In this document: one piece after another, positions 12,054 to 29,530 of the stretch | Position numbering within the stretch: position 1 is the first letter of the stretch | Layout: each line of letters begins with the position of its first letter | Virus record (IMG/VR): IMGVR_UViG_3300045141_000107 | Span: 1 to 64,000 of that record | DNA length: 64,000 nt | Direction: 5' to 3' (one strand) | Source of the DNA: a virus | Program-made: the position numbers and the translations under genes | Notes under the pieces: generated by a model | What the model was told of the DNA's origin: nothing | Database searches by the model: none | The model's input: only the letters and a program-made list of their open reading frames with translations

Positions 12054-12614
12054 CTATACACCTCCACCCCGTCCTGAAACAATCCGCATCTCTGCCATAC
12101 GCCACATACTCTCTCGATCCAGCGCGTTTACGTACATCTGGAAATCTTTCGTTAAGGCATCCAACGCTTCTTCGAGTACGATAAGGTTATCCAGTTCGCG
12201 TTCCATACCAGATATACGCTTACTGGCCTGAACCTTACCGTGTATAGCGTCAACGTAGATCTTGCTGCTACGCTCTGGGGCAAATATGCGGAATAGCCTT
12301 TTCTTAGCTCGGTCCAGTCTGCGCTCTGCGGCTTTCTTCTCACCCCTGGTTATGCCGAGCAAAGCGTTGACACGAGCAAACTGCGCTGCCCAATACGACT
12401 GTAGCGCTCTCAGTTCACGTGGCTGCACCATTGTGATGTCAGTAGGGAAAGCATCGTCTTTGGTAATGTCCGGCATCTGGGCTGGAAATGGTATACTGAG
12501 TCGTGCCAGTGTTTCGAGCAGTTCCGCCCTTGGAACTACCATTTCCAGGCTTTGGATCATACGTGGCGTCAGTGGTGCTACTGCCGCTATATTCGTATGG
12601 TCCTTAGCGGGCAT
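12054..12614 (-). CDS. coiled-coil protein, UvsY-like recombination mediator candidate
   Basis: long helical hairpin pattern; same operon as RecA and exonuclease. Confidence 0.5.
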   Translation of the reverse strand: MPAKDHTNIAAVAPLTPRMIQSLEMVVPRAELLETLARLSIPFPAQMPDITKDDAFPTDITMVQPRELRALQSYWAAQFARVNALLGITRGEKKAAERRLDRAKKRLFRIFAPERSSKIYVDAIHGKVQASKRISGMERELDNLIVLEEALDALTKDFQMYVNALDRESMWRMAEMRIVSGRGGGV

Positions 12615-12945
12615 CTATCCACTCCTTACCGCAACCAGGATGTGGGCACCTAGCGAGAAGCCCGTCCGGCAAGTCGTTTCCCCGATACGTTTCCACGACC
12701 GTTCCGTCCAGCGGACAAACCAACGCTACGATAAACCCCCTTCGGTTTCCTATCAGTTGCGCTAGATTGAGTTTGTCCATGTCGTTCTGTGTCAGGGCTA
12801 TCCTCTTGCTCAGGTGGCCTTTGACTTCGCTTCCCATTGCGCTTGGCCGCCAGTTGAAGTTGACAAAACCTGCAACCGGATAGACCTTCGAGCGATTTTG
12901 CGTTCTGGTGCTTTTTGTAGATCCCTTTGAGGTGCCAGCAGGCAT
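12604..12945 (-). CDS. Zn-ribbon protein
   Basis: CPLDG...CPHPGC; start uncertain. Confidence 0.5.
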   Translation of the reverse strand: MPAGTSKGSTKSTRTQNRSKVYPVAGFVNFNWRPSAMGSEVKGHLSKRIALTQNDMDKLNLAQLIGNRRGFIVALVCPLDGTVVETYRGNDLPDGLLARCPHPGCGKEWIDAR

Positions 12946-13222
12946 GGCAGAGTATTAGAACCTTCTTTCCAACAGAATGGTACTGTGGTGCGTCTTTGTC
13001 GGAGCCGCTTACTGAGTAATACTTACGTTCTCCGCACAGAGCGCAAGTATATCTGCTTATCTGTACCTCAAACGGGTCGAATGTAGGGTGGGACTTACCT
13101 GGGTTCTTTGCTTCCCACTTCAAGCGCGCTTTGTGGAGAAGCAACCAGTGCCTCTTTTGCCACGTCTCCAGCTTTACCATGTGTATGCCTACAGTATACA
13201 GGCTGGGACGTTCTGGCAGCAC
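12650..13222 (-). CDS. Zn-finger protein with long overlap
   Basis: CALC...CHAC; abuts upstream stop. Confidence 0.5.
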   Translation of the reverse strand: MLPERPSLYTVGIHMVKLETWQKRHWLLLHKARLKWEAKNPGKSHPTFDPFEVQISRYTCALCGERKYYSVSGSDKDAPQYHSVGKKVLILCHACWHLKGIYKKHQNAKSLEGLSGCRFCQLQLAAKRNGKRSQRPPEQEDSPDTERHGQTQSSATDRKPKGVYRSVGLSAGRNGRGNVSGKRLAGRASR

Positions 13223-13582
13223 TCAGGGTTTTGTAAGATCCTCGATAGTGGACTTTACCTCTGCAAGCTCTTCGTCACTGGATGTTTCCAGGTGTTGATG
13301 AATTAGCTCGTTGCGCCCCTCAGGCAAGGCCCGGATGATCTCGTCCAGTTTCAGATGGATAGCAGCACTATCACGGTTCTGGGTATTCTGGATAATGAAC
13401 ACTAGCAAGAACGTGAGTACCGTAGTCCCGGTATTGATAACCAACTGCCACGTATCAGAGAAACCAAATATCGGTCCCGATATGGCCCACACCACACATG
13501 CAGCAAGCGAGATCACAAATGCCAGTGGGTGTCCGGTCCAGTTACCAACCAGGGTTGAAAACCGCGTAAAAGCAGCTTTCAT
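13223..13582 (-). CDS. low-affinity iron permease family (Fet4-like) membrane protein
   Basis: GPIFGFSDTWQLVINTGTTVLTFLLVFIIQNTQNRDSAAIHLKLDEII signature. Confidence 0.9.
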   Translation of the reverse strand: MKAAFTRFSTLVGNWTGHPLAFVISLAACVVWAISGPIFGFSDTWQLVINTGTTVLTFLLVFIIQNTQNRDSAAIHLKLDEIIRALPEGRNELIHQHLETSSDEELAEVKSTIEDLTKP

Positions 13583-14394
13583 TGGCCTGCCTGCGTAAGA
13601 CGTAGACAGTTTAGATTCTGCCTGCAATTGGCAAACATTCTATCGCCAGGTTGAACATGACCCTTATCATCCATGGTACAACCATGTGCAGGAAGTGTGC
13701 CATCCTTACGGTGCTGACGCAAGATTTTGTACTGAGCACGTAGCTGGTTGATTAGTGCCATATCCCGATGCACAGGCAGCTCAAAGTACTCTTGCGTGTT
13801 CTTATTCTCAAACCACAAGATGGCCTTGTTGATGTGGAGCGCCTGCATGTAGTTGTGTATCTGCCAGTTGTACCCTTGCAGATGATCAGGCAGTTTCTTG
13901 CTACGTGCTATCTCCTTGAAGATGGCATCATTGGCACCCTTCACATCGACGACGTAAACTTCCCCATCTATCTCAATTACGTCGTCAGGTGTTCCGGCCA
14001 CAAACCACGGCAGATACTCCACCATTTCCTCTTGCGCGTGTACCTTTAGGTACCCGTGCCGCTGCATGCGTAGAAATATCGTGTGCCATCTAAGGTGTCG
14101 CCAATGCCCATCGTCGAACAGGTTGTTGGTATGGGGGTTGTCATCCAGACGTCCTTCCATACCATTGATAGCAAGCATCTGTTCACGTAAGCAGCGCTTG
14201 GAACCAGATGGGCTGAAGTAAGTCTTCTGCCGTGGTAGGTTACGAGCCATGATGAGTTTGGCAGCAAACAGTGCCTCAGACTTGGTGAAGTTACCAAGGT
14301 CTTGCGTGATCAGGAACTGGTCTACTAGGGACGTCAGTACCTTGTCCGGATCACGCCTGTTTTTGAGGTACTGTTTGATGTCAAAGCCAGGCAT
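13579..14394 (-). CDS. Cas4-like PD-(D/E)XK exonuclease
   Basis: SPS..RC, GTPD, VVDVKG, QIHNYM, C-terminal Cys triad. Confidence 0.8.
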   Translation of the reverse strand: MPGFDIKQYLKNRRDPDKVLTSLVDQFLITQDLGNFTKSEALFAAKLIMARNLPRQKTYFSPSGSKRCLREQMLAINGMEGRLDDNPHTNNLFDDGHWRHLRWHTIFLRMQRHGYLKVHAQEEMVEYLPWFVAGTPDDVIEIDGEVYVVDVKGANDAIFKEIARSKKLPDHLQGYNWQIHNYMQALHINKAILWFENKNTQEYFELPVHRDMALINQLRAQYKILRQHRKDGTLPAHGCTMDDKGHVQPGDRMFANCRQNLNCLRLTQAGQ

Positions 14395-21760: not shown

Positions 21761-22678
21761 TTATGTGGAAGCAGGCACGTACTTTCGCGTAGCTGTACGA
21801 CTAGGTGTACCATCCGGATTAGTATGGTATCTCGCACGTGCATACTTTTGAAACTCACACAAGGAATGCTCTATAGACCGAAGTGTCAGGGGGTAGCCTG
21901 GGTAGACGGACTGCCACTGTTCATCTCGGCCAATTGACTGTATAAAGTCTCCCTGTCTGGCTCGTAGATATGAAATATAATCTTCCCATTTACGGCCAGG
22001 GTCACGCTTACCCCAGATCCACTGGATTCCACGCTTGCATCCAGGGCCTGCATTGACCCAATCGTCTTCTGAAAATGCAATAAGCCTAGAATAGTTGACG
22101 TCAATAGCGAGCTCATAAGCAAGGAATCTTCCGAACCCCTGGGTATCATTGAAGATCTGCCATACCCTTTTCAGCGAGTTCGCAGACTTTAGTGCATCCA
22201 GTAGTGCTGGCGTTTGCCGTTGCAGGTTACCTATAAGCCAGCAGATGTTCCTTATTTTGTCTGGAAACCCGCCAAACTTTACACCTGTTACTGTAAAGGC
22301 ATCTGTGAATACACGACTACCGTGGTTCTCATAGGCGTTCAGGTACCGACTAGCACGTTCCCAATCCCAAGCCCCGTACTTTGTCATCTTGCAGCGCAAC
22401 ATGAGGAACCTGAAGGTGTCAATGTCGTTGAACAACCTGTATACCATGATGGCAAACAGCAGGTCTTTGTCGTCCTGTAACTTGAGCAGGTTACGGATCA
22501 GGAATATGGTGCCCTTGTCCAGTTCCCTGTACACGTTGGTGAAGAAGTACGACCTTAAGATGTAGTCTTGTGTCCAGGGGGCTGATTCTCCAAGTACCAT
22601 ACGCTTATGATAAATGGACTGGCGCTCCACCACAAAGTTCCAGAACGCATCCATCTTGTCTTGTCTATACTTATTCAT
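21761..22678 (-). CDS. alpha-glutamyl/putrescinyl thymine pyrophosphorylase clade 1-like (amino acid:DNA transferase family)
   Basis: ERQSIY.KR...PWTQD.IL....FTNVYRELD, GFGRFLAYE..ID, GPGCKRG, IEHSLCEFQKY. Confidence 0.85.
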   Translation of the reverse strand: MNKYRQDKMDAFWNFVVERQSIYHKRMVLGESAPWTQDYILRSYFFTNVYRELDKGTIFLIRNLLKLQDDKDLLFAIMVYRLFNDIDTFRFLMLRCKMTKYGAWDWERASRYLNAYENHGSRVFTDAFTVTGVKFGGFPDKIRNICWLIGNLQRQTPALLDALKSANSLKRVWQIFNDTQGFGRFLAYELAIDVNYSRLIAFSEDDWVNAGPGCKRGIQWIWGKRDPGRKWEDYISYLRARQGDFIQSIGRDEQWQSVYPGYPLTLRSIEHSLCEFQKYARARYHTNPDGTPSRTATRKYVPAST

Positions 22679-22769
22679 CTCGCAATGATCTAAGGAACTT
22701 TGTGTATCCCCAAGCAACCACGACAGCCGATGTCAGCCAACCAATCGCTATCCACAACCACGTAGGCAT
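22671..22769 (-). CDS. 32-aa TM peptide (not in ORF track)
   Basis: MPTWLWIAIGWLTSAVVVAWGYTKFLRSLRDE; overlaps both neighbours. Confidence 0.55.
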   Translation of the reverse strand: MPTWLWIAIGWLTSAVVVAWGYTKFLRSLRDE

Positions 22770-23767
22770 TATATGAAGGCCAGGTGAGAATTATCGTTAG
22801 ATAATTCTTCGTTCATGACGTCATGATATACATGGAATCTGCAATCGTAGAAGTCGCACTCGGGAATGATAACTCTTTGCATGGCGTCCCTGTGTGATTG
22901 CGAATACCATATATCCTTGAAGCTACCTCGTACACTTGTAAGCGTCCCGAAGGAGATATCCTCAACTCTGTCCTGATAGTAACAGCACACCCACACCGTG
23001 CCAAGTGCGTCGACAACAGTGTGTAAGGGGCTAAGCCAGCAACTTCCTCGCTGGTGAGTCTTAGTGATTCCACCGAAAACTCTTCCCGGCCATTTAGCTC
23101 CAAGCTTGTGAATGGTATCTTGAATAGCATCTCTGCTGTCTTCAGGTAAGAGTTCAGGATCATCACTGCAATGGCGCTTCGCCTTGATACTAACAAAGTC
23201 CGCCCCGGCATCTAATATCTCCTCAGTGAGCCATTCGACCGCTGGAACGCTACTGCTGCCAAGAAGGATTTTCCCGCCGATGCGGCAAGAAGAGCGAAGA
23301 TTATTGCGGCTCTCACAGATTCTGCGAAGTCCGTCCACCTGGTTGCTAGTATAAATACTGACACGAAGGTAACGAGTTCCAGGGTAAACCAGAGCAGCAG
23401 TACACGCATCCGGCCTCGTTCCGTTGGTAATCATACCAAACTGTAAACGGCGACTAGCAACGCAAGACATAAGATCAGCAAACTTAGGATGAAGAGTAGG
23501 CTCTCCCCCACCGGAGAACTCAATTGACTCTCCACCCAGATCTGCAAAATCGTTGACAAGACCATTAAAGATATCAAGACCAATGTTGGCGGGGTGAGCA
23601 TTCTCAGCATTAGAGATACAGCCGAAGCAGCGCATATTGCAACTGTATGTAGGGTAAACAATTGCCATCGTGGGGGCAACCATCTCACCACGGTTTAGCC
23701 TGACTGCATCCTTACGGAAGCTGAGTATCTTTGTGCGCAGATCTACTGGCGCATATTGTGGTATCAC
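22769..23767 (-). CDS. radical SAM enzyme with SPASM/twitch domain
   Basis: CNMRCFGC, FSGGGEPTLHP, ITNG, C-terminal C...GTVWVCC...FKDIW...C...C. Confidence 0.92.
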   Translation of the reverse strand: MIPQYAPVDLRTKILSFRKDAVRLNRGEMVAPTMAIVYPTYSCNMRCFGCISNAENAHPANIGLDIFNGLVNDFADLGGESIEFSGGGEPTLHPKFADLMSCVASRRLQFGMITNGTRPDACTAALVYPGTRYLRVSIYTSNQVDGLRRICESRNNLRSSCRIGGKILLGSSSVPAVEWLTEEILDAGADFVSIKAKRHCSDDPELLPEDSRDAIQDTIHKLGAKWPGRVFGGITKTHQRGSCWLSPLHTVVDALGTVWVCCYYQDRVEDISFGTLTSVRGSFKDIWYSQSHRDAMQRVIIPECDFYDCRFHVYHDVMNEELSNDNSHLAFI

Positions 23768-23994
23768 TTGTTGTCTTCTCTCCTATTGACGGCCCTACCA
23801 AACCAGTATCCGATAACTGTGCTTATGACAGCAACGGCAGCAGAGTCTATAGCTACGTCGTAGTGGTTAGTAATTACCAGGAACGAACCCAATAATACTA
23901 ACACAGTGAGGACCCATTCTGCACCAAGCGTCCATAAGCCAGGCGAACCACTGGCTTCTAGACCTCCAAGTTTGGCATGCCAATCTTCGGCCAC
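23764..23994 (-). CDS. small 2-TM membrane protein
   Basis: two hydrophobic helices, VIGYWFG. Confidence 0.65.
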   Translation of the reverse strand: MAEDWHAKLGGLEASGSPGLWTLGAEWVLTVLVLLGSFLVITNHYDVAIDSAAVAVISTVIGYWFGRAVNRREDNK

Positions 23995-24000
23995 AAGTTA

Positions 24001-25458
24001 TCACCCAAATGCTTCAAGCCACGCCCTTGCCACGCCGCTAATAAACTTGACCCATCGCCCGTCTGTTACTGGTACTGCTAGCTGTTCGGATACTCCCAAG
24101 GCACTGAGGGTGAGTTCTGGTCCAAGAACCTCTGCGAGATCCTCTTGTTCCTCTCGATCATCCTCTGCTGTCGCCACCATAGCTGTCCCTGGGGCGTTCG
24201 TAGAAACATAAACTTCCTGACGGTCAACCATACGAACTTCAGGAACGGGGTCATCACAAACATCGTCCCAGAAAGTAGGGTTATAAATGCCAGGAGCGTG
24301 CCCGTATTCTTGTCTGTTTTCAAGATGGTCGAGTATTGTTTGCGCGTGGATCCTGGCATCACTGTACTCCCTAACAAATTCCATAGCTCTGTACGCTATG
24401 CGGCGTTGAAGCCGTGGATCAGCCATCAGTTCATTGAGTCTTTCAGCGATTCCTGCTGAAGATGGCGGTAGCCCCCAGGTGACATCAACAGAGGATAACG
24501 GACTCCACCTGTGTTCTTGAACACGTGTGGATACGGCTGATACACAACCGTACAACATCGCTTCAAGCATGACGCAGGATGTTTGACCGTCGAACCTTTG
24601 GCCGCCAATCGACCCACTAAGATCCACACTAATATTGTGGCTGCGGTAAATTCCAGGTAGAGCATCAGGAAGTTGCGCTCCCCAATACTGGTGGTCAGGC
24701 CTACCACGACCGCGGCGCTTACCAATATGGTCAAGACCAATAGCGTCTTTCCAGCCAGCCCCCACCTTGTTCCTGACATTGTGGTACTCGATTCCGGCAT
24801 TGTACAGATCAACCGGATAGTCTATACTAGGGAGCGCCTTTATGAACGGATAGATGCCTTTCCACTTCTTCCATTGCGGCATCCAACATATCGTACCAGT
24901 CTTGTCGGACACGTTCAGACCAACCCTCCGGACGTCTAGGGGGGTAGGCAGAAACACAAAGTGTCCTGGTAGGCGAGCCAGAGAGTCGTATTTGGATTGA
25001 TAACACGTGAACATGTGAAGACTCACCATATCTGATACCTGACGATACCAGGGGTAGTAAGTATCCCACAGGTTGTCGTGAATCATCACCATTATTGGAA
25101 GCCCCAGATCTGCCGCTTCCTCGTACAGCATCATCCATGACATGTCCCCCGTATTGCTCTTGATATCATGAGGGCATGGCAGCATGAACATTACCACGTC
25201 GTAGTTGCGCAATAATCTGCGATACTGCCGTCTCGCTTCGTCTCCACGGTAAGGCAACTGCTGCGCTGGCAAGCGGTAGTACCTGTGGTTGACCATCGTA
25301 GCACTCGTCTGGCTCAGGTTGCGTACCTTGCCTGCCCTGCTAGCCCAAAAGTAGTCGAACGTGCACCCGATAGCTTCCAGACCGTACTGCAAACCTTCAA
25401 CTATCCGGTTTATGCCGCCACGCTCGATTATCTCAAAGTCGATTACTATAAATCTCAT
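24001..25458 (-). CDS. GT-B fold glycosyltransferase
   Basis: RGGINR, MIHD, WKKWKGI, VMLEAMLYGC. Confidence 0.8.
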   Translation of the reverse strand: MRFIVIDFEIIERGGINRIVEGLQYGLEAIGCTFDYFWASRAGKVRNLSQTSATMVNHRYYRLPAQQLPYRGDEARRQYRRLLRNYDVVMFMLPCPHDIKSNTGDMSWMMLYEEAADLGLPIMVMIHDNLWDTYYPWYRQVSDMVSLHMFTCYQSKYDSLARLPGHFVFLPTPLDVRRVGLNVSDKTGTICWMPQWKKWKGIYPFIKALPSIDYPVDLYNAGIEYHNVRNKVGAGWKDAIGLDHIGKRRGRGRPDHQYWGAQLPDALPGIYRSHNISVDLSGSIGGQRFDGQTSCVMLEAMLYGCVSAVSTRVQEHRWSPLSSVDVTWGLPPSSAGIAERLNELMADPRLQRRIAYRAMEFVREYSDARIHAQTILDHLENRQEYGHAPGIYNPTFWDDVCDDPVPEVRMVDRQEVYVSTNAPGTAMVATAEDDREEQEDLAEVLGPELTLSALGVSEQLAVPVTDGRWVKFISGVARAWLEAFG

Positions 25459-25979
25459 ACAGGTAGTTTATCACCTACCAGGGGCTGCTGAGCAAATTCA
25501 TCCTCCTGAACCTGATACAGTAGGTAGTCGGCAGCCATTTCCAGACTGTCCAACACCACCAGGCTCATTGCCCTCCAGGCTGCATAGTCTCCAAGACCAT
25601 GTGTGAGATCCACAGTGACAACAGGTTTACCCCAAGCATAAGCGACACCGATTTCGTGAGCGCTGTCAATGGAGGGGTGGTCCGGATATATACAAGATAG
25701 GACGAAGTCACTATCGTGGATAAGGCGTAGGTTACGAGGAATATAGAACTCAGCTCTGGTGGTACTACCCCCATTAGTGAGAGTATCCGGGGGACGAGGA
25801 TGAAGCCACACCACACTACAAACGAGCTTATCAATGTCTGCACGAGGTCGCGTATAGTCGGGCGGTACCATCGACCATTTTTTCGCGACCTTTTCACGGA
25901 CCGCATCCCTGTACAGGTTCTCCAGGGTGTACCGCCACCCTACCCGCATGGTACCTGAAGTATACGGCGCGATTCTCAC
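25455..25979 (-). CDS. nucleoside 2-deoxyribosyltransferase / (d)NMP N-hydrolase family
   Basis: YTSG, SDFVL, SAHEIGVAYAWGKPVV. Confidence 0.8.
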   Translation of the reverse strand: MRIAPYTSGTMRVGWRYTLENLYRDAVREKVAKKWSMVPPDYTRPRADIDKLVCSVVWLHPRPPDTLTNGGSTTRAEFYIPRNLRLIHDSDFVLSCIYPDHPSIDSAHEIGVAYAWGKPVVTVDLTHGLGDYAAWRAMSLVVLDSLEMAADYLLYQVQEDEFAQQPLVGDKLPV

Positions 25980-26422
25980 TACTGCTGCCTGTCATCATCG
26001 TCATCAACGAAATTGAGACCAAACCACGCCATGCACATGAAGTCGCGCACAAGGATGTCAAAGAAGGTGCCGTGCAGCTTGTTCTTGTCCCACTTCAGTA
26101 CGGCCCCATCTTCGCTAGCAGAGTCAAGCCTGTACAGCTTGTCCTTCAGGTCTACCAGTGCCGTGACTGGCCCGTCTTTCTGCCAGGCATCTTTGTACTG
26201 CTCGTTCTTCTGCACTACCAGAGCGTCATATTCCTTCAACGCCAGCAGTAGCACAGGGTTCAGACAGTAGGTGTTATCTCCTACAGTTAGAACACCACCG
26301 TCAATACTAACAGCATCTGTATCACCGGTGCTGTCACCAAAGACAAATCTGGCAAATTGCCTGATAAGCCATCCAGGCTTGATGTTCACCTGTTGCATAT
26401 CTGCTGGCGTTACTGTTTTCAT
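25979..26422 (-). CDS. DUF1599 / nucleotide modification associated domain 1
   Basis: KNEQYKDAW...LKDKLYRL...TFFDI. Confidence 0.7.
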   Translation of the reverse strand: MKTVTPADMQQVNIKPGWLIRQFARFVFGDSTGDTDAVSIDGGVLTVGDNTYCLNPVLLLALKEYDALVVQKNEQYKDAWQKDGPVTALVDLKDKLYRLDSASEDGAVLKWDKNKLHGTFFDILVRDFMCMAWFGLNFVDDDDDRQQ

Positions 26423-26937
26423 TACGGCATCATTGCCCTTAGACCGAATGCACGGCGCTTGCCTCTGTAGCGCGTGTTGCTTAGTGCACCAATGGGAGGT
26501 GTGAGGCCACCAATGACGTTGGGGATGTGACTGTCGTTCTGAAGCTCTACATGGTTGCCAGCAGGCATAGTCACCACGGCTTTGTTACTGACAGGCTTGC
26601 GGTAAGGCTTGACGTAGCTGTTGGACTTGACTACAGACCCGTGCCGCAGGTTTACAGACATGGGTTCCGTGTGTATACCCTGGTCGAACAGGACCAGAGA
26701 GACCTGTGCAGCACGTGGTGTCAGGTACACATACCGCAGCTTCTTTTCTGGGTCGGTGAAGCGGATAGTCTGCACATCCACAGACACAGACTTGGCTGTA
26801 GGAAACGCTGCCCGCACTGCATCAGCCCACATGCAGTGTGATGAACTACGTGCCTCAGCGTTCTGGATAATCTCCTCCGTAACCGTGATCGTCAGCTTAG
26901 GTGCATGTGGTCGTCTAACTGTAGTTTGCTCTGCCAC
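26422..26937 (-). CDS. hypothetical protein, first gene of modification cluster
   Basis: ITVTEEII...SHCMWADAV; SD GGAGAAAGGGA. Confidence 0.65.
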   Translation of the reverse strand: MAEQTTVRRPHAPKLTITVTEEIIQNAEARSSSHCMWADAVRAAFPTAKSVSVDVQTIRFTDPEKKLRYVYLTPRAAQVSLVLFDQGIHTEPMSVNLRHGSVVKSNSYVKPYRKPVSNKAVVTMPAGNHVELQNDSHIPNVIGGLTPPIGALSNTRYRGKRRAFGLRAMMP

Positions 26938-28452: not shown

Positions 28453-29463
28453 CTAACGTCGGCGGCCGAGGGGTCGCTTCGTTGTTGCTGCTGCCCGCGC
28501 AGGTGTTTTTGTAGTCTTCCGTCGTGGTGCTTCTTCTTCCTCGTCTTCATCTTCTTCGTCTTCTTCGTCGGCATCATCTTCGTCTTCGTCCTCATCCTCC
28601 TCTTCTTCTACTGGTGCCGCTTTTCGTCCTCGGGCTGTGGCCGTTTTTCGGCTTCGCGCTGGAGGCTCTTCTTCATCTTCCTCTTCATCTTCTTCATCCG
28701 ATTCTTCTTCGTCTTCATCCTCGTCCTCGTCTACCGGGGCACGACGACGTGACGTCTTGGCTGCGGTTTTACGACGAGGGGCCTCCTCCTCGTCTTCATC
28801 CTCATCTTCATCCTCCACATCTTCCACATCGTCTTCGTCCTCATCATCATCAATGGACGAAGCTCGTGCTTTCAGCCCACGGCTACCGCCGTAGTAGGCT
28901 TGTGCCTGCTGATCGAGGTACTGAACAATATCGATCAGCTTGATATTGCGCTGGTCGAAGCGTTCCTTCTCCTCCGCTTCGATGTGGTATTTGGTGTCGG
29001 TGCCTTCACCTGTACGAGTAATGCTATAGTCGCGGTCCATGATGGTTCCGCGGCGCTCGTACTTGATGATCAGGTTCTCGACCATCGCTCCCGTGAGCTT
29101 CAGCAAACGAACCTGCTTGCTGTCACGGTCCCAGACGTTCACGTACCAACGCTTTCCGGCACGCACATCACCGTCCAGACGGCAGTTGTCGATGCAGGGG
29201 ACATACGCCCCGTTACCGCCTCCGCCCCCAGGAACGTAGTGCTCATAGTACTCCACCCATGGAGTCTTACCGAACGGTTCATGCAGGAAACGTACTGTAC
29301 GCGCTTCTCCCTCCTTGAAGGTCAAGCGCACGCTAGGCATCTGCTTAGCGGAGTCCTGCAAACTCTTGGAGTCTGTGTGCGTCGCTGTACGCACTTTGAT
29401 GGTCCTGGGCGCTTCCTCGTCACGCCCATTACGTGAGAACGCGGTCTTCTTGGCTACTGCCAT
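28453..29463 (-). CDS. gp32-like single-stranded DNA-binding protein with long charge-blocked tail
   Basis: VRFL, YEHY, DYSITRTGEGTDTKY; located after primase. Confidence 0.8.
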   Translation of the reverse strand: MAVAKKTAFSRNGRDEEAPRTIKVRTATHTDSKSLQDSAKQMPSVRLTFKEGEARTVRFLHEPFGKTPWVEYYEHYVPGGGGGNGAYVPCIDNCRLDGDVRAGKRWYVNVWDRDSKQVRLLKLTGAMVENLIIKYERRGTIMDRDYSITRTGEGTDTKYHIEAEEKERFDQRNIKLIDIVQYLDQQAQAYYGGSRGLKARASSIDDDEDEDDVEDVEDEDEDEDEEEAPRRKTAAKTSRRRAPVDEDEDEDEEESDEEDEEEDEEEPPARSRKTATARGRKAAPVEEEEDEDEDEDDADEEDEEDEDEEEEAPRRKTTKTPARAAATTKRPLGRRR

Positions 29464-29530
29464 ACTTTCTCCTAGACCCAAATTTTGGGTGCCACCTAAA
29501 CTGTACTTGTCCCAGCTTTGTGGAGCAACC

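Follow-up and report, generated by a model that had tools for sequence, protein, structure and literature searches.

The window analysed here covers positions 1 to 64,000 of an IMG/VR virus record of 90,205 bp (IMGVR_UViG_3300045141_000107, rated 98% complete and called G000 below). Between positions 21761 and 26994 it contains seven minus-strand open reading frames (ORFs), five of which form a conserved module within the replication genes. The module encodes a mostly helical protein of 147 aa, a putative enzyme of the nucleoside 2-deoxyribosyltransferase (NDT) superfamily, a GT-B glycosyltransferase (GT), a radical SAM enzyme and a clade-1 aGPT-Pplase (Pplase1). A thymidylate synthase (TS) homologue is encoded elsewhere in the window. 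It seems to us rather probable, judging from these genes, that the five-gene module and the distant TS homologue, acting as a dUMP hydroxymethylase, carry out a kinase-free, sugar-type hypermodification of 5-hydroxymethyldeoxyuridine (5-hmdU) in the phage's own DNA.

Layout and conservation of the module

The initial annotation described an operon of five tightly packed enzyme-like genes ahead of dnaE, with a TS homologue 12 kb away. The positions and the packing were borne out, but the gene count was not, as the interval holds seven ORFs with five of them conserved (Table 1). Most junctions are overlaps, of 1 nt at 26422 and 25979 and of 4 nt at 25455-25458 and 23764-23767; gaps of 6 nt behind the GT gene and 51 nt ahead of the Pplase1 gene make up the rest. 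The five module genes are translationally coupled and sited within the replication module, with DnaB, a primase, a single-stranded DNA-binding (SSB)-like protein and a 369-aa protein encoded upstream, and two small ORFs, DnaE and RecA downstream.

Conservation of the neighbourhood had been proposed as a check on the operon. With the radical SAM protein as query, eight related loci at 62-89% identity turned up among viral contigs, and homologues of the 147-, 174-, 485-, 332- and 318-aa proteins are present, with the order kept, in all five IMG/VR loci that span the interval (L006-L010). One of these, L010, has all five module genes although its DnaE and DnaB are 63% and 44% identical to those of the window. 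The three truncated related loci carry whichever part of the module falls within reach. As the 190-aa ORF has a homologue in none of the eight loci and the 76-aa ORF in one (L005), the conserved module comprises five genes. In the other spanning loci the GT gene directly adjoins the radical SAM gene, without the 76-aa ORF between them. The 190-aa ORF, which had no Pfam, PHROG or NCBIfam match and no usable Atlas match, is probably a lineage-specific recent insert or not a gene.

Near-identical DNA was found in seven further soil or rhizosphere sequencing runs from seven studies, each with at least half of the sampled words, and no RNA run was among them. Scans for promoters and terminators gave site numbers not above those of shuffled sequence. 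Across 50,697 records of isolate phages, the module block was unmatched by blastn and the 147-aa, radical SAM, GT and NDT-like proteins were unmatched by tblastn. A viral-contig scan with P0095 as query gave no match.

Table 1. Positions of the module genes, of other genes in the window and of sugar de-N-acetylase-type genes in outside loci
Feature	Position	Strand	Remark
190-aa ORF	26994-26422	-	homologue in 0/8 related loci; not counted in module
147-aa mostly helical protein	26422-25979	-	first conserved gene
Putative NDT-superfamily (nucleoside 2-deoxyribosyltransferase / DNPH1-like) enzyme, 174 aa	25979-25455	-	
GT-B glycosyltransferase, distant relative of T4 DNA alpha-glucosyltransferase, 485 aa	25458-24001	-	
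76-aa hydrophobic ORF	23994-23764	-	variable; outside conserved core
Radical SAM enzyme with C-terminal SPASM/twitch-type Cys-rich domain, 332 aa	23767-22769	-	
Clade-1 aGPT-Pplase (PF18723 'HMUDK_hel'), 318 aa	22717-21761	-	
Two small ORFs past the Pplase1 gene	21755-21381 and 21274-20912	-	
dnaE	20908-17705	-	downstream of module
TS homologue, probable dUMP hydroxymethylase, 378 aa	9584-8448	-	12.2 kb from module
PIG-L/LmbE-like gene, locus L032	12169-12816		sugar de-N-acetylase-type
PIG-L/LmbE-like gene, locus L033	11094-11657		sugar de-N-acetylase-type
PIG-L/LmbE-like gene, locus L034	about 12409-12951		sugar de-N-acetylase-type

The encoded proteins

The 318-aa protein matches PF18723 at E 9.3e-71 and is the sole copy in the genome, in agreement with the earlier label aGPT-PPlase1. 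Pfam calls this family 'HMUDK_hel', for '5-hmdU DNA kinase, helical domain'. A search of the Pplase1 ORF for a Walker A motif came up empty, so the protein is not the kinase. It matches SP10 gp186 over residues 315-596 only, the part given in Table 3 of Lee et al. 2018 (PMC5889632) as an aG/PT-PPlase1 fused to a kinase. Its best matches are PaMx11 gp50 (28% identity, E about 1e-25) and YuA gp14. By its sequence, Pplase1 is a clade-1 paralogue of the PaMx11 gp50/YuA gp14 type and not the characterised clade-2 transferase. Phage M6 has two aG/PT-PPlases, gp55 and gp51 (Lee et al. 2018, PMC5889632). When the M6 pathway was reconstituted in lysate, the kinase gp54 and the clade-2 gp51 were sufficient and gp55 was dispensable, while the clade-2 enzyme of ViI, gp247, was necessary, according to the accessible text of Lee et al. 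2021 (PMC8989533). The accessible parts of the 2024 structural paper (PMC11472151) and of the 2026 diaminopropane paper assign no activity to clade 1.

The solved member of clade 2 is a DNA-binding enzyme that flips the base out, and in PaMx11 gp46 Glu243 is a metal-binding residue and Cys247 the nucleophile that attacks C6, as described in the accessible text of PMC11472151. When eight clade-1 sequences were aligned to PaMx11 gp46 by MAFFT, Glu283 and Cys287 of Pplase1 (motif E-H-S-L-C-E) came to stand under Glu243 and Cys247. As a PDB search with the single Pplase1 sequence gave no match, the link to gp46 rests on this alignment. With the Cys/Glu pair kept, Pplase1 looks catalytically competent.

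The TS homologue matches PF00303 at E 7.9e-21. Among the isolate-phage matches listed, it is 29% identical to the SP10 'dUMP hydroxymethylase' over 92% of the query and 36% identical to SPO1 gp29 over 62% of the query. Its Cys and RSND...N motif align with those of the TS homologues of hypermodifying phages. It is probably a dUMP hydroxymethylase that supplies 5-hmdUMP.

We searched for a 5-hmdU kinase in four ways. Searching G000 by tblastn with the SP10, Nachito and PaMx11 kinases found none, and in a scan for Walker A motifs no ORFs came up other than those assigned by Pfam as RecA and two helicases. A profile of the three kinases and PF18748 (5-hmdU DNA kinase) found none in G000 or in G001, a 90,615-bp relative with terminal repeats that is rated 100% complete; both recovered the positive control YuA gp13, at 8.8e-24 and 1.1e-19 respectively. 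We also looked for the clade-2 transferase. PF18724, which matches PaMx11 gp46 at 1.6e-27, had no match in G000 at E<=10, while tblastn of G000 with PaMx11 gp46 gave chance-level matches only (E 0.027 and 0.74, inside unrelated genes). In a separate tblastn search of this genome, SP10 gp185 likewise had chance-level matches only (E 0.35 or weaker). The genome gave no match to PF12917, the family of HD-type 5'-deoxynucleotidases, and no pyridoxal phosphate (PLP), FAD or acetyltransferase tailoring enzyme was detected in the part of the ORFs scanned. Many ORFs of the genome have no assigned function.

On its own, the GT protein gave faint Pfam matches (E about 0.01) to generic GT1/GT4 families, and a word-index search returned 26 proteins, every one at least 52% identical. 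A HMMER search with the profile of these 26 proteins reached just 202 of 1.84 billion cluster representatives at E<=1e-3. Glycos_transf_1 was matched by 16 and Glyco_trans_1_2 by 14 of the 91 family members aligned. Compared with the PDB, the 91-sequence profile had T4 DNA alpha-glucosyltransferase (AGT) at the top, at E 6.5e-17 in two stretches that take in both domains, followed by sucrose-phosphate synthase (SPS; 6e-12) and GT4 enzymes (about 1e-8); its matches to GT-B enzymes cover both halves. Alignment of the family with a-gt from the T4 record by hhalign gave 97.9% probability over 344 columns. There was no close AGT orthologue among the stored proteins, including all profile members (best blastp E 0.007), so the AGT match is not an effect of contamination. 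A structural model was made from the clade alignment, and with it Foldseek returned 15 matches at E<=0.001. The 14 of these that were listed all have GT-B-type folds (GT4, NeuC, SPS, MurG, PimA). Across the Foldseek matches GT-B folds predominate, and the highest query TM-score listed, 0.40, belongs to AGT with DNA (1y6g). The GT-B label of the initial annotation therefore holds firmly, resting on Foldseek, the family profile and hhalign. The family profile and hhalign also link the GT to DNA glycosylation, while for a putative transfer of sugar to a hydroxymethylpyrimidine in DNA it is the genomic association described next that speaks. A C-terminal extra part of about 100 residues is common to the near clade only.

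More distant members of the GT family, used as scan queries, led to four viral contigs that do not belong to the clade (G002, G003, G004 and G005). In G002 and G003 the GT gene lies 1-4 kb from Pplase1 and a TS homologue, and no further window protein was matched in these two loci at E<=1e-3. In G005 the TS homologue is about 13 kb away from the GT gene. Taking the contigs whole, Pplase1 is present in two of the four and TS in three. The NDT-like and 147-aa proteins had no blast match within 10 kb of the GT gene in the four outside loci and thus appear accessory. The pattern of recurrence suggests a core of GT, Pplase1 and TS, with lineage-specific tailoring genes. In three of the four contigs a PIG-L-like gene lies at most about 1.5 kb downstream of the GT gene (Table 1). 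The Pfam matches of these genes are weak (E 3e-4 to 9e-4), but the three proteins share 37-42% identity among themselves. They suggest an N-acetylated sugar in those lineages, with transfer of N-acetylglucosamine (GlcNAc) followed by deacetylation on DNA. In G003 an HD 5'-deoxynucleotidase gene lies behind the TS gene. The cluster in G002 (L032, 9869-17473) deserves separate mention: it has genes for a GT, an HNH/AP2 protein, a SAM methyltransferase, a PIG-L-like protein, a low-molecular-weight phosphatase (PF01451), a 5-hmdU kinase, Pplase1, a TS homologue and a DUF3310 protein, so that enzymes of both the kinase and the GT route are encoded together.

The radical SAM enzyme passes the Pfam cut-offs for both parts of its earlier label, PF04055 (E 2.6e-8, 34.7 bits against 29.5) and the SPASM domain PF13186 (E 5.4e-6, 27.0 bits against 21.5). 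In an alignment of 32 sequences the cysteines of the CX3CX2C motif (C43, C47 and C50) and C243, C261 and C309 are invariant, and C262 and C304 are conserved in at least 90%. A full SPASM motif has seven Cys. With five conserved C-terminal Cys (243, 261, 262, 304 and 309), the domain may bind one cluster, like twitch domains. Compared as a profile with the PDB, the family matched DesII best (9.5e-21), followed in order by SkfB, anSME, BlsE (1.1e-15), PqqE, MoaA and BtrN (8.4e-13). No radical SAM model of NCBIfam came near its cut-off; the BlsE-type model TIGR04466 scored 21.9 bits against a cut-off of 400 (E 1e-4).

Relatives of the radical SAM protein form two groups: 37 are at least 52% identical to it, and 28 are 23-35% identical, a few of the latter being labelled as from bacterial metagenome-assembled genomes (MAGs). 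The nearest cellular homologue, 34% identical, is in a Desulfarculaceae MAG (L015), where its neighbours encode a UDP-GlcNAc 2-epimerase, a cytidylyltransferase, a GT2 enzyme, a Maf-like protein, a GT1-like enzyme, a DegT aminotransferase and two more radical SAM/SPASM enzymes. The location of this homologue in a nucleotide-sugar and glycosylation locus favours a sugar as substrate, whether free, bound to a nucleoside diphosphate (NDP) or on DNA. A GT/radical SAM pair conserved across phage and cell was considered and rejected, as hhalign of the Desulfarculaceae GT with the phage GT gave 6%. Matches to 'Pizza' entries of the PDB were set aside as repeat artefacts. As observations in their own right, the Desulfarculaceae cluster (L015, 8001-12539) combines three radical SAM/SPASM genes and the GT1-like gene in a nonulosonic-acid-like sugar locus with the Maf-like gene, which suggests an uncharacterised bacterial radical sugar-tailoring system; and in the window a 134-aa ORF (13223-13627, minus strand) has a match at E 2.3e-43 to PF04120, the family of low-affinity iron permeases, so that an iron-uptake gene shares the phage genome with the gene for this Fe-S enzyme.

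The 174-aa protein was initially called a deoxyribosyltransferase, a label that stands in part. It matches PF05014 at E 3.8e-6 and 27.5 bits, below the cut-off of 28.8; such a near miss is compatible with the NDT superfamily. A profile of five clade members found YtoQ, NDT and DNPH1/Rcl in the PDB at E 0.007-0.3, and eight of the nine rows of that search are NDT-type or related folds. The invariant motif A-x-E-[IV]-G...G-[KR] aligns with S-E-I-G-V-A-Y-A-K-G-I-P of the NDT 7m5h and with Y-E-L-G of the DNPH1 4fyh. Its Glu falls in the column of the E in the NDT and DNPH1 rows, which we take to be the catalytic Glu of these enzymes. Together these matches point weakly to the NDT superfamily. An ORF of 104 to 113 aa in another frame inside this gene (25565-25906, minus strand) is open in the window and in L006, L008 and L009, and is probably a by-product of conservation in the main frame.

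The 147-aa protein has an invariant acidic C-terminal motif, NF-x-DDDD-x-R. It had no Pfam or NCBIfam match, and the Pfam field is empty in all 72 of its homologues. Its AlphaFold2 (AF2) model is helical with a pLDDT of 82; with it, Foldseek gave no match at E<=0.001 and VIA-align a best Z of 6.1, with none at or above 8. PDB profile searches gave nothing useful. A few MazG-like or PRA-PH-like rows (2a7w, 2p06, 4qgp, 1yvw) ranked no higher than unrelated helical hairpins. The label DUF1599, given initially to the first gene of the operon, found no support: PF07659 was matched by neither upstream ORF in hmmscan at E<=10, by nothing in a genome-wide search and by none of the 72 homologues. One Atlas cluster (score 0.83) has DUF1599 in 13% of its members, which is below the threshold for a lead; any relationship to DUF1599 would be a remote one. 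A search for DUF3310 found nothing. Searching the ORFs by profile or structure, as the initial annotation had proposed, thus gave firm identities for GT, the radical SAM enzyme and Pplase1, a weak one for the NDT-like protein and no fold match for the 147-aa protein.

A proposed route to a modified base, and its alternatives

What we observed are the genes themselves, their families and their conservation, the absence of kinase and clade-2 transferase, and the repeated occurrence of GT alongside Pplase1 and TS. The route that we propose from them is as follows. The TS homologue would make 5-hmdUMP, and the phage's own DnaE replisome would incorporate it. The AGT-like GT-B enzyme would then flip out 5-hmdU in the DNA and glycosylate its hydroxymethyl group with an NDP-sugar as donor, in the way that T4 AGT acts on 5-hydroxymethylcytosine (5-hmC). 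The radical SAM/SPASM enzyme would abstract a hydrogen from the sugar and oxidise, dehydrate or remodel it in the manner of DesII, BtrN and BlsE, acting either on the sugar bound to DNA or on the NDP-sugar donor before transfer. Pplase1 probably works on the C5 methylene of the modified base, because it retains the Cys/Glu pair responsible in clade 2 for the attack on C6. The NDT-like and 147-aa proteins would remove nucleotides such as dTMP or dUMP, in place of the HD 5'-deoxynucleotidase of related clusters. As related clusters carry a 5'-deoxynucleotidase and this genome does not, the two are most plausibly nucleotide-pool helpers. All the chemical steps, the product, the sugar, the order of GT and radical SAM enzyme and the part played by Pplase1 are proposals.

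The initial annotation had suggested a sugar-bearing thymidine derivative remodelled by the radical SAM enzyme, with a second substituent possibly attached to phosphorylated 5-hydroxymethyluracil (5-hmU) by the aGPT-PPlase. Its first part fits a DNA-modification module with a TS homologue and relatives of AGT and DesII. The second substituent is not supported, given that neither G000 nor G001 has a detectable kinase and that the clade-1 paralogue was dispensable in the M6 reconstitution. A more specific scheme can be drawn, in which glycosylation and radical SAM chemistry on the DNA-bound sugar replace phosphorylation. The Cys/Glu pair of Pplase1 would then act at C6, so that the activated group on the C5 methylene is rearranged or exchanged, giving a thymidine derivative of a chemical class new to DNA. 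In this scheme the radical SAM enzyme would be the first shown to remodel a glycosylated DNA base. We regard the scheme as possible but doubtful.

Several results weigh against a kinase-free sugar modification. The sequence itself gives no sign of modified virion DNA, and the system is known from genes alone. The 14-sequence profile of the window's own GT clade reaches AGT at E 0.055, so the link to AGT rests on the wider family. The AF2 model of GT is poor (pLDDT 58, below 50 in the C-terminal half), and the Foldseek matches, at E 2e-4 and weaker, are therefore soft. Pplase1 is missing from two of the four outside contigs and TS from one, these contigs being 51-56% complete. In G002 a 5-hmdU kinase adjoins the GT gene, so GT and kinase are not mutually exclusive. 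Radical SAM genes were not found in the three outside contigs tested; the enzyme is thus a lineage-specific add-on, and its substrate is not inferable by association. The matches to DesII, BlsE and BtrN are mainly over the shared core barrel, and the peptide-acting SkfB, anSME and PqqE score nearly as well. The role given to the NDT-like and 147-aa proteins is the weakest step of the scheme.

There are three other explanations. The GT and radical SAM enzyme could act on a protein, a lipid or a host glycan, with TS and Pplase1 forming a separate thymidine pathway and their adjacency accidental. Maf-like genes are linked to flagellin glycosylation, and the locus of the cellular radical SAM homologue includes one. 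The good scores of SkfB, anSME and PqqE would suit a target other than DNA, as would the faint, generic GT1/GT4 matches of GT itself and the Glycos_transf_1 matches of 16 of its 91 family members. Against this, the five translationally coupled genes are conserved together within the replication module. Among solved relatives of the GT family a DNA glucosyltransferase ranks first, its E-value five orders of magnitude ahead of the next, and GT adjoins Pplase1 and TS in two viral contigs with no other detectable shared protein. We consider a target other than DNA unlikely.

A second explanation places the pathway at the level of free nucleotides. In the biosynthesis of blasticidin and mildiomycin, a TS-like hydroxymethylase (MilA), an NDT-like hydrolase (BlsM/MilB), a GT (BlsD/MilC) and a radical SAM decarboxylase (BlsE/MilG) lead to a hexose nucleoside. 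The enzyme types correspond one for one with those of the window (TS-like, NDT-like with its aligned Glu, GT and radical SAM), and BlsE, a cytosylglucuronate decarboxylase, is among the radical SAM matches in both the PDB (1.1e-15) and NCBIfam (1e-4). Such a pathway would yield a small molecule, or else a precursor that enters DNA afterwards by exchange. However, DesII outranks BlsE, as do SkfB and anSME, and the nearest solved relative of GT works on DNA. No PLP aminotransferase or peptide-ligase domain was found in the scanned ORFs, which are part of all ORFs, and the NDT-like and 147-aa proteins, unmatched near GT in the four outside loci, appear accessory. The module also has Pplase1, from a family with a clade-2 member that binds DNA and flips bases (accessible text of PMC11472151). 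A free-nucleotide pathway has, in our view, little probability.

Very unlikely, finally, is an ordinary hypermodification of the amino-acid or polyamine type, with an unrecognised kinase of phage or host, Pplase1 as the transferase and GT and the radical SAM enzyme as decorators: Pplase1 does retain the Cys/Glu pair needed for attack on C6, many ORFs have no function and the G002 cluster has a kinase, but the four types of kinase search were empty in G000, the profile and PF18748 were empty in the complete G001, and clade-1 gp55 could be omitted from the M6 reconstitution (accessible text of PMC8989533).

Phage hypermodification built on a hydroxymethylpyrimidine is a well-known kind of system. 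What sets apart this clade, found in several soil and rhizosphere metagenomes with two essentially complete genomes, is that neither kinase nor transferase was found in it, yet it keeps the hydroxymethylase and the clade-1 Pplase, to which a relative of DNA glucosyltransferases and a radical SAM enzyme of the sugar type are added. If the phage does hypermodify its DNA without a kinase, the clade would offer a clean genetic background for finding the role of clade-1 aGPT-Pplases. The scheme also predicts a new sugar-bearing base and new enzymes for tagging 5-hmU in DNA, and would be relevant to the ways in which soil phages evade restriction and defences of the glycosylase type.

Comparison with known systems

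To our knowledge, all solved pathways of thymidine hypermodification begin with a DNA kinase, which is followed by an amino-acid or diamine transferase. The clusters of M6/YuA, PaMx11, ViI, PhiW-14 and SP10 share with the present one a TS homologue, a clade-1 aGPT-Pplase and a site in the replication module, and those of M6 and SP10 likewise include a radical SAM gene. Whereas M6, PaMx11, ViI, PhiW-14 and SP10 use a kinase (PF18748) and a clade-2 transferase (PF18724), neither of which was found in the window genome, the window phage has instead an AGT-like GT and an NDT-like enzyme. The radical SAM enzymes differ too: that of the window is of the SPASM/twitch type and closest to DesII, while M6 gp53 is described, in the accessible text on that phage, as spore photoproduct lyase-like.

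T4 AGT (1xv5, 1y6f, 1y6g) resembles the window GT in being a phage-encoded GT-B enzyme with its gene in or near the replication genes, and a W-K-G-[IF]-Y motif aligns between them, but compared pairwise the two are no more identical than chance would have it (blastp E 0.21), and the presumed acceptors are 5-hmC for AGT and 5-hmU for the window enzyme. DesII, BtrN and BlsE have the CX3CX2C core in common with the window radical SAM enzyme, and BtrN and BlsE have a C-terminal auxiliary-cluster domain. A sugar bound to DNA would be a new class of substrate relative to all three. Base J of kinetoplastids is made by a thymidine hydroxylase, JBP, that oxidises T in DNA, and a glucosyltransferase, JGT, that acts after it. 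Its end point, a glycosylated 5-hydroxymethyluracil in DNA, is the one proposed here, but 5-hmU arises there within DNA and not at the nucleotide level through a TS homologue, and the pathway has no radical SAM enzyme or Pplase.

Uncultivated marine pelagiphages have been described with a TS and an aG/PT-PPlase1 gene, and sometimes a GT and a 5'-deoxynucleotidase gene, near the DNA polymerase gene, and the accessible text of PMC9599517 mentions no kinase. They are podoviruses with PolA. That text mentions no radical SAM or NDT-like enzyme and reports no chemistry, and the pelagiphage GT, annotated as of the beta-glucosyl-HMC-alpha-glucosyltransferase type, is likened to that of the window by description only. 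Thymidines that bear sugars or sugar-derived groups occur in SP-15, YerA41, Carin-5 (PMC12686479) and the Pbunaviruses F8 and 14-1 (PMC12191111), according to the accessible text of these sources. In Carin-5 a block of GT and sugar-modification genes adjoins the polymerase gene (PMC12686479). These phages have other linkers (dihydroxypentyl in SP-15) and other polymerases, and the accessible accounts of them mention neither Pplase1 nor a radical SAM enzyme, nor do they name the genes behind the Pbunavirus modification.

The initial annotation did not recognise its enzyme combination as chemically characterised, and our search of the literature agrees: full texts did not describe thymidine hypermodification or 5-hydroxymethyluracil together with a glycosyltransferase and a radical SAM enzyme, a search that clusters given only in supplements could escape. 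Related papers deal with base J, with the glycosylation of 5-hmC and 5-hydroxycytosine, and with the sugar-type thymidines of SP-15/Carin-5 and the Pbunaviruses, which have other gene sets. The word 'glycosyltransferase' has no occurrence in the main text of PMC8989533, where the supplementary figures and the contig list of Figure 2 may differ.

Among the flanking genes of the window, a 342-aa protein is encoded at the position expected for SSB (28453-29481, minus strand) and has no Pfam match. In its tail of about 130 residues, long acidic and basic blocks alternate.

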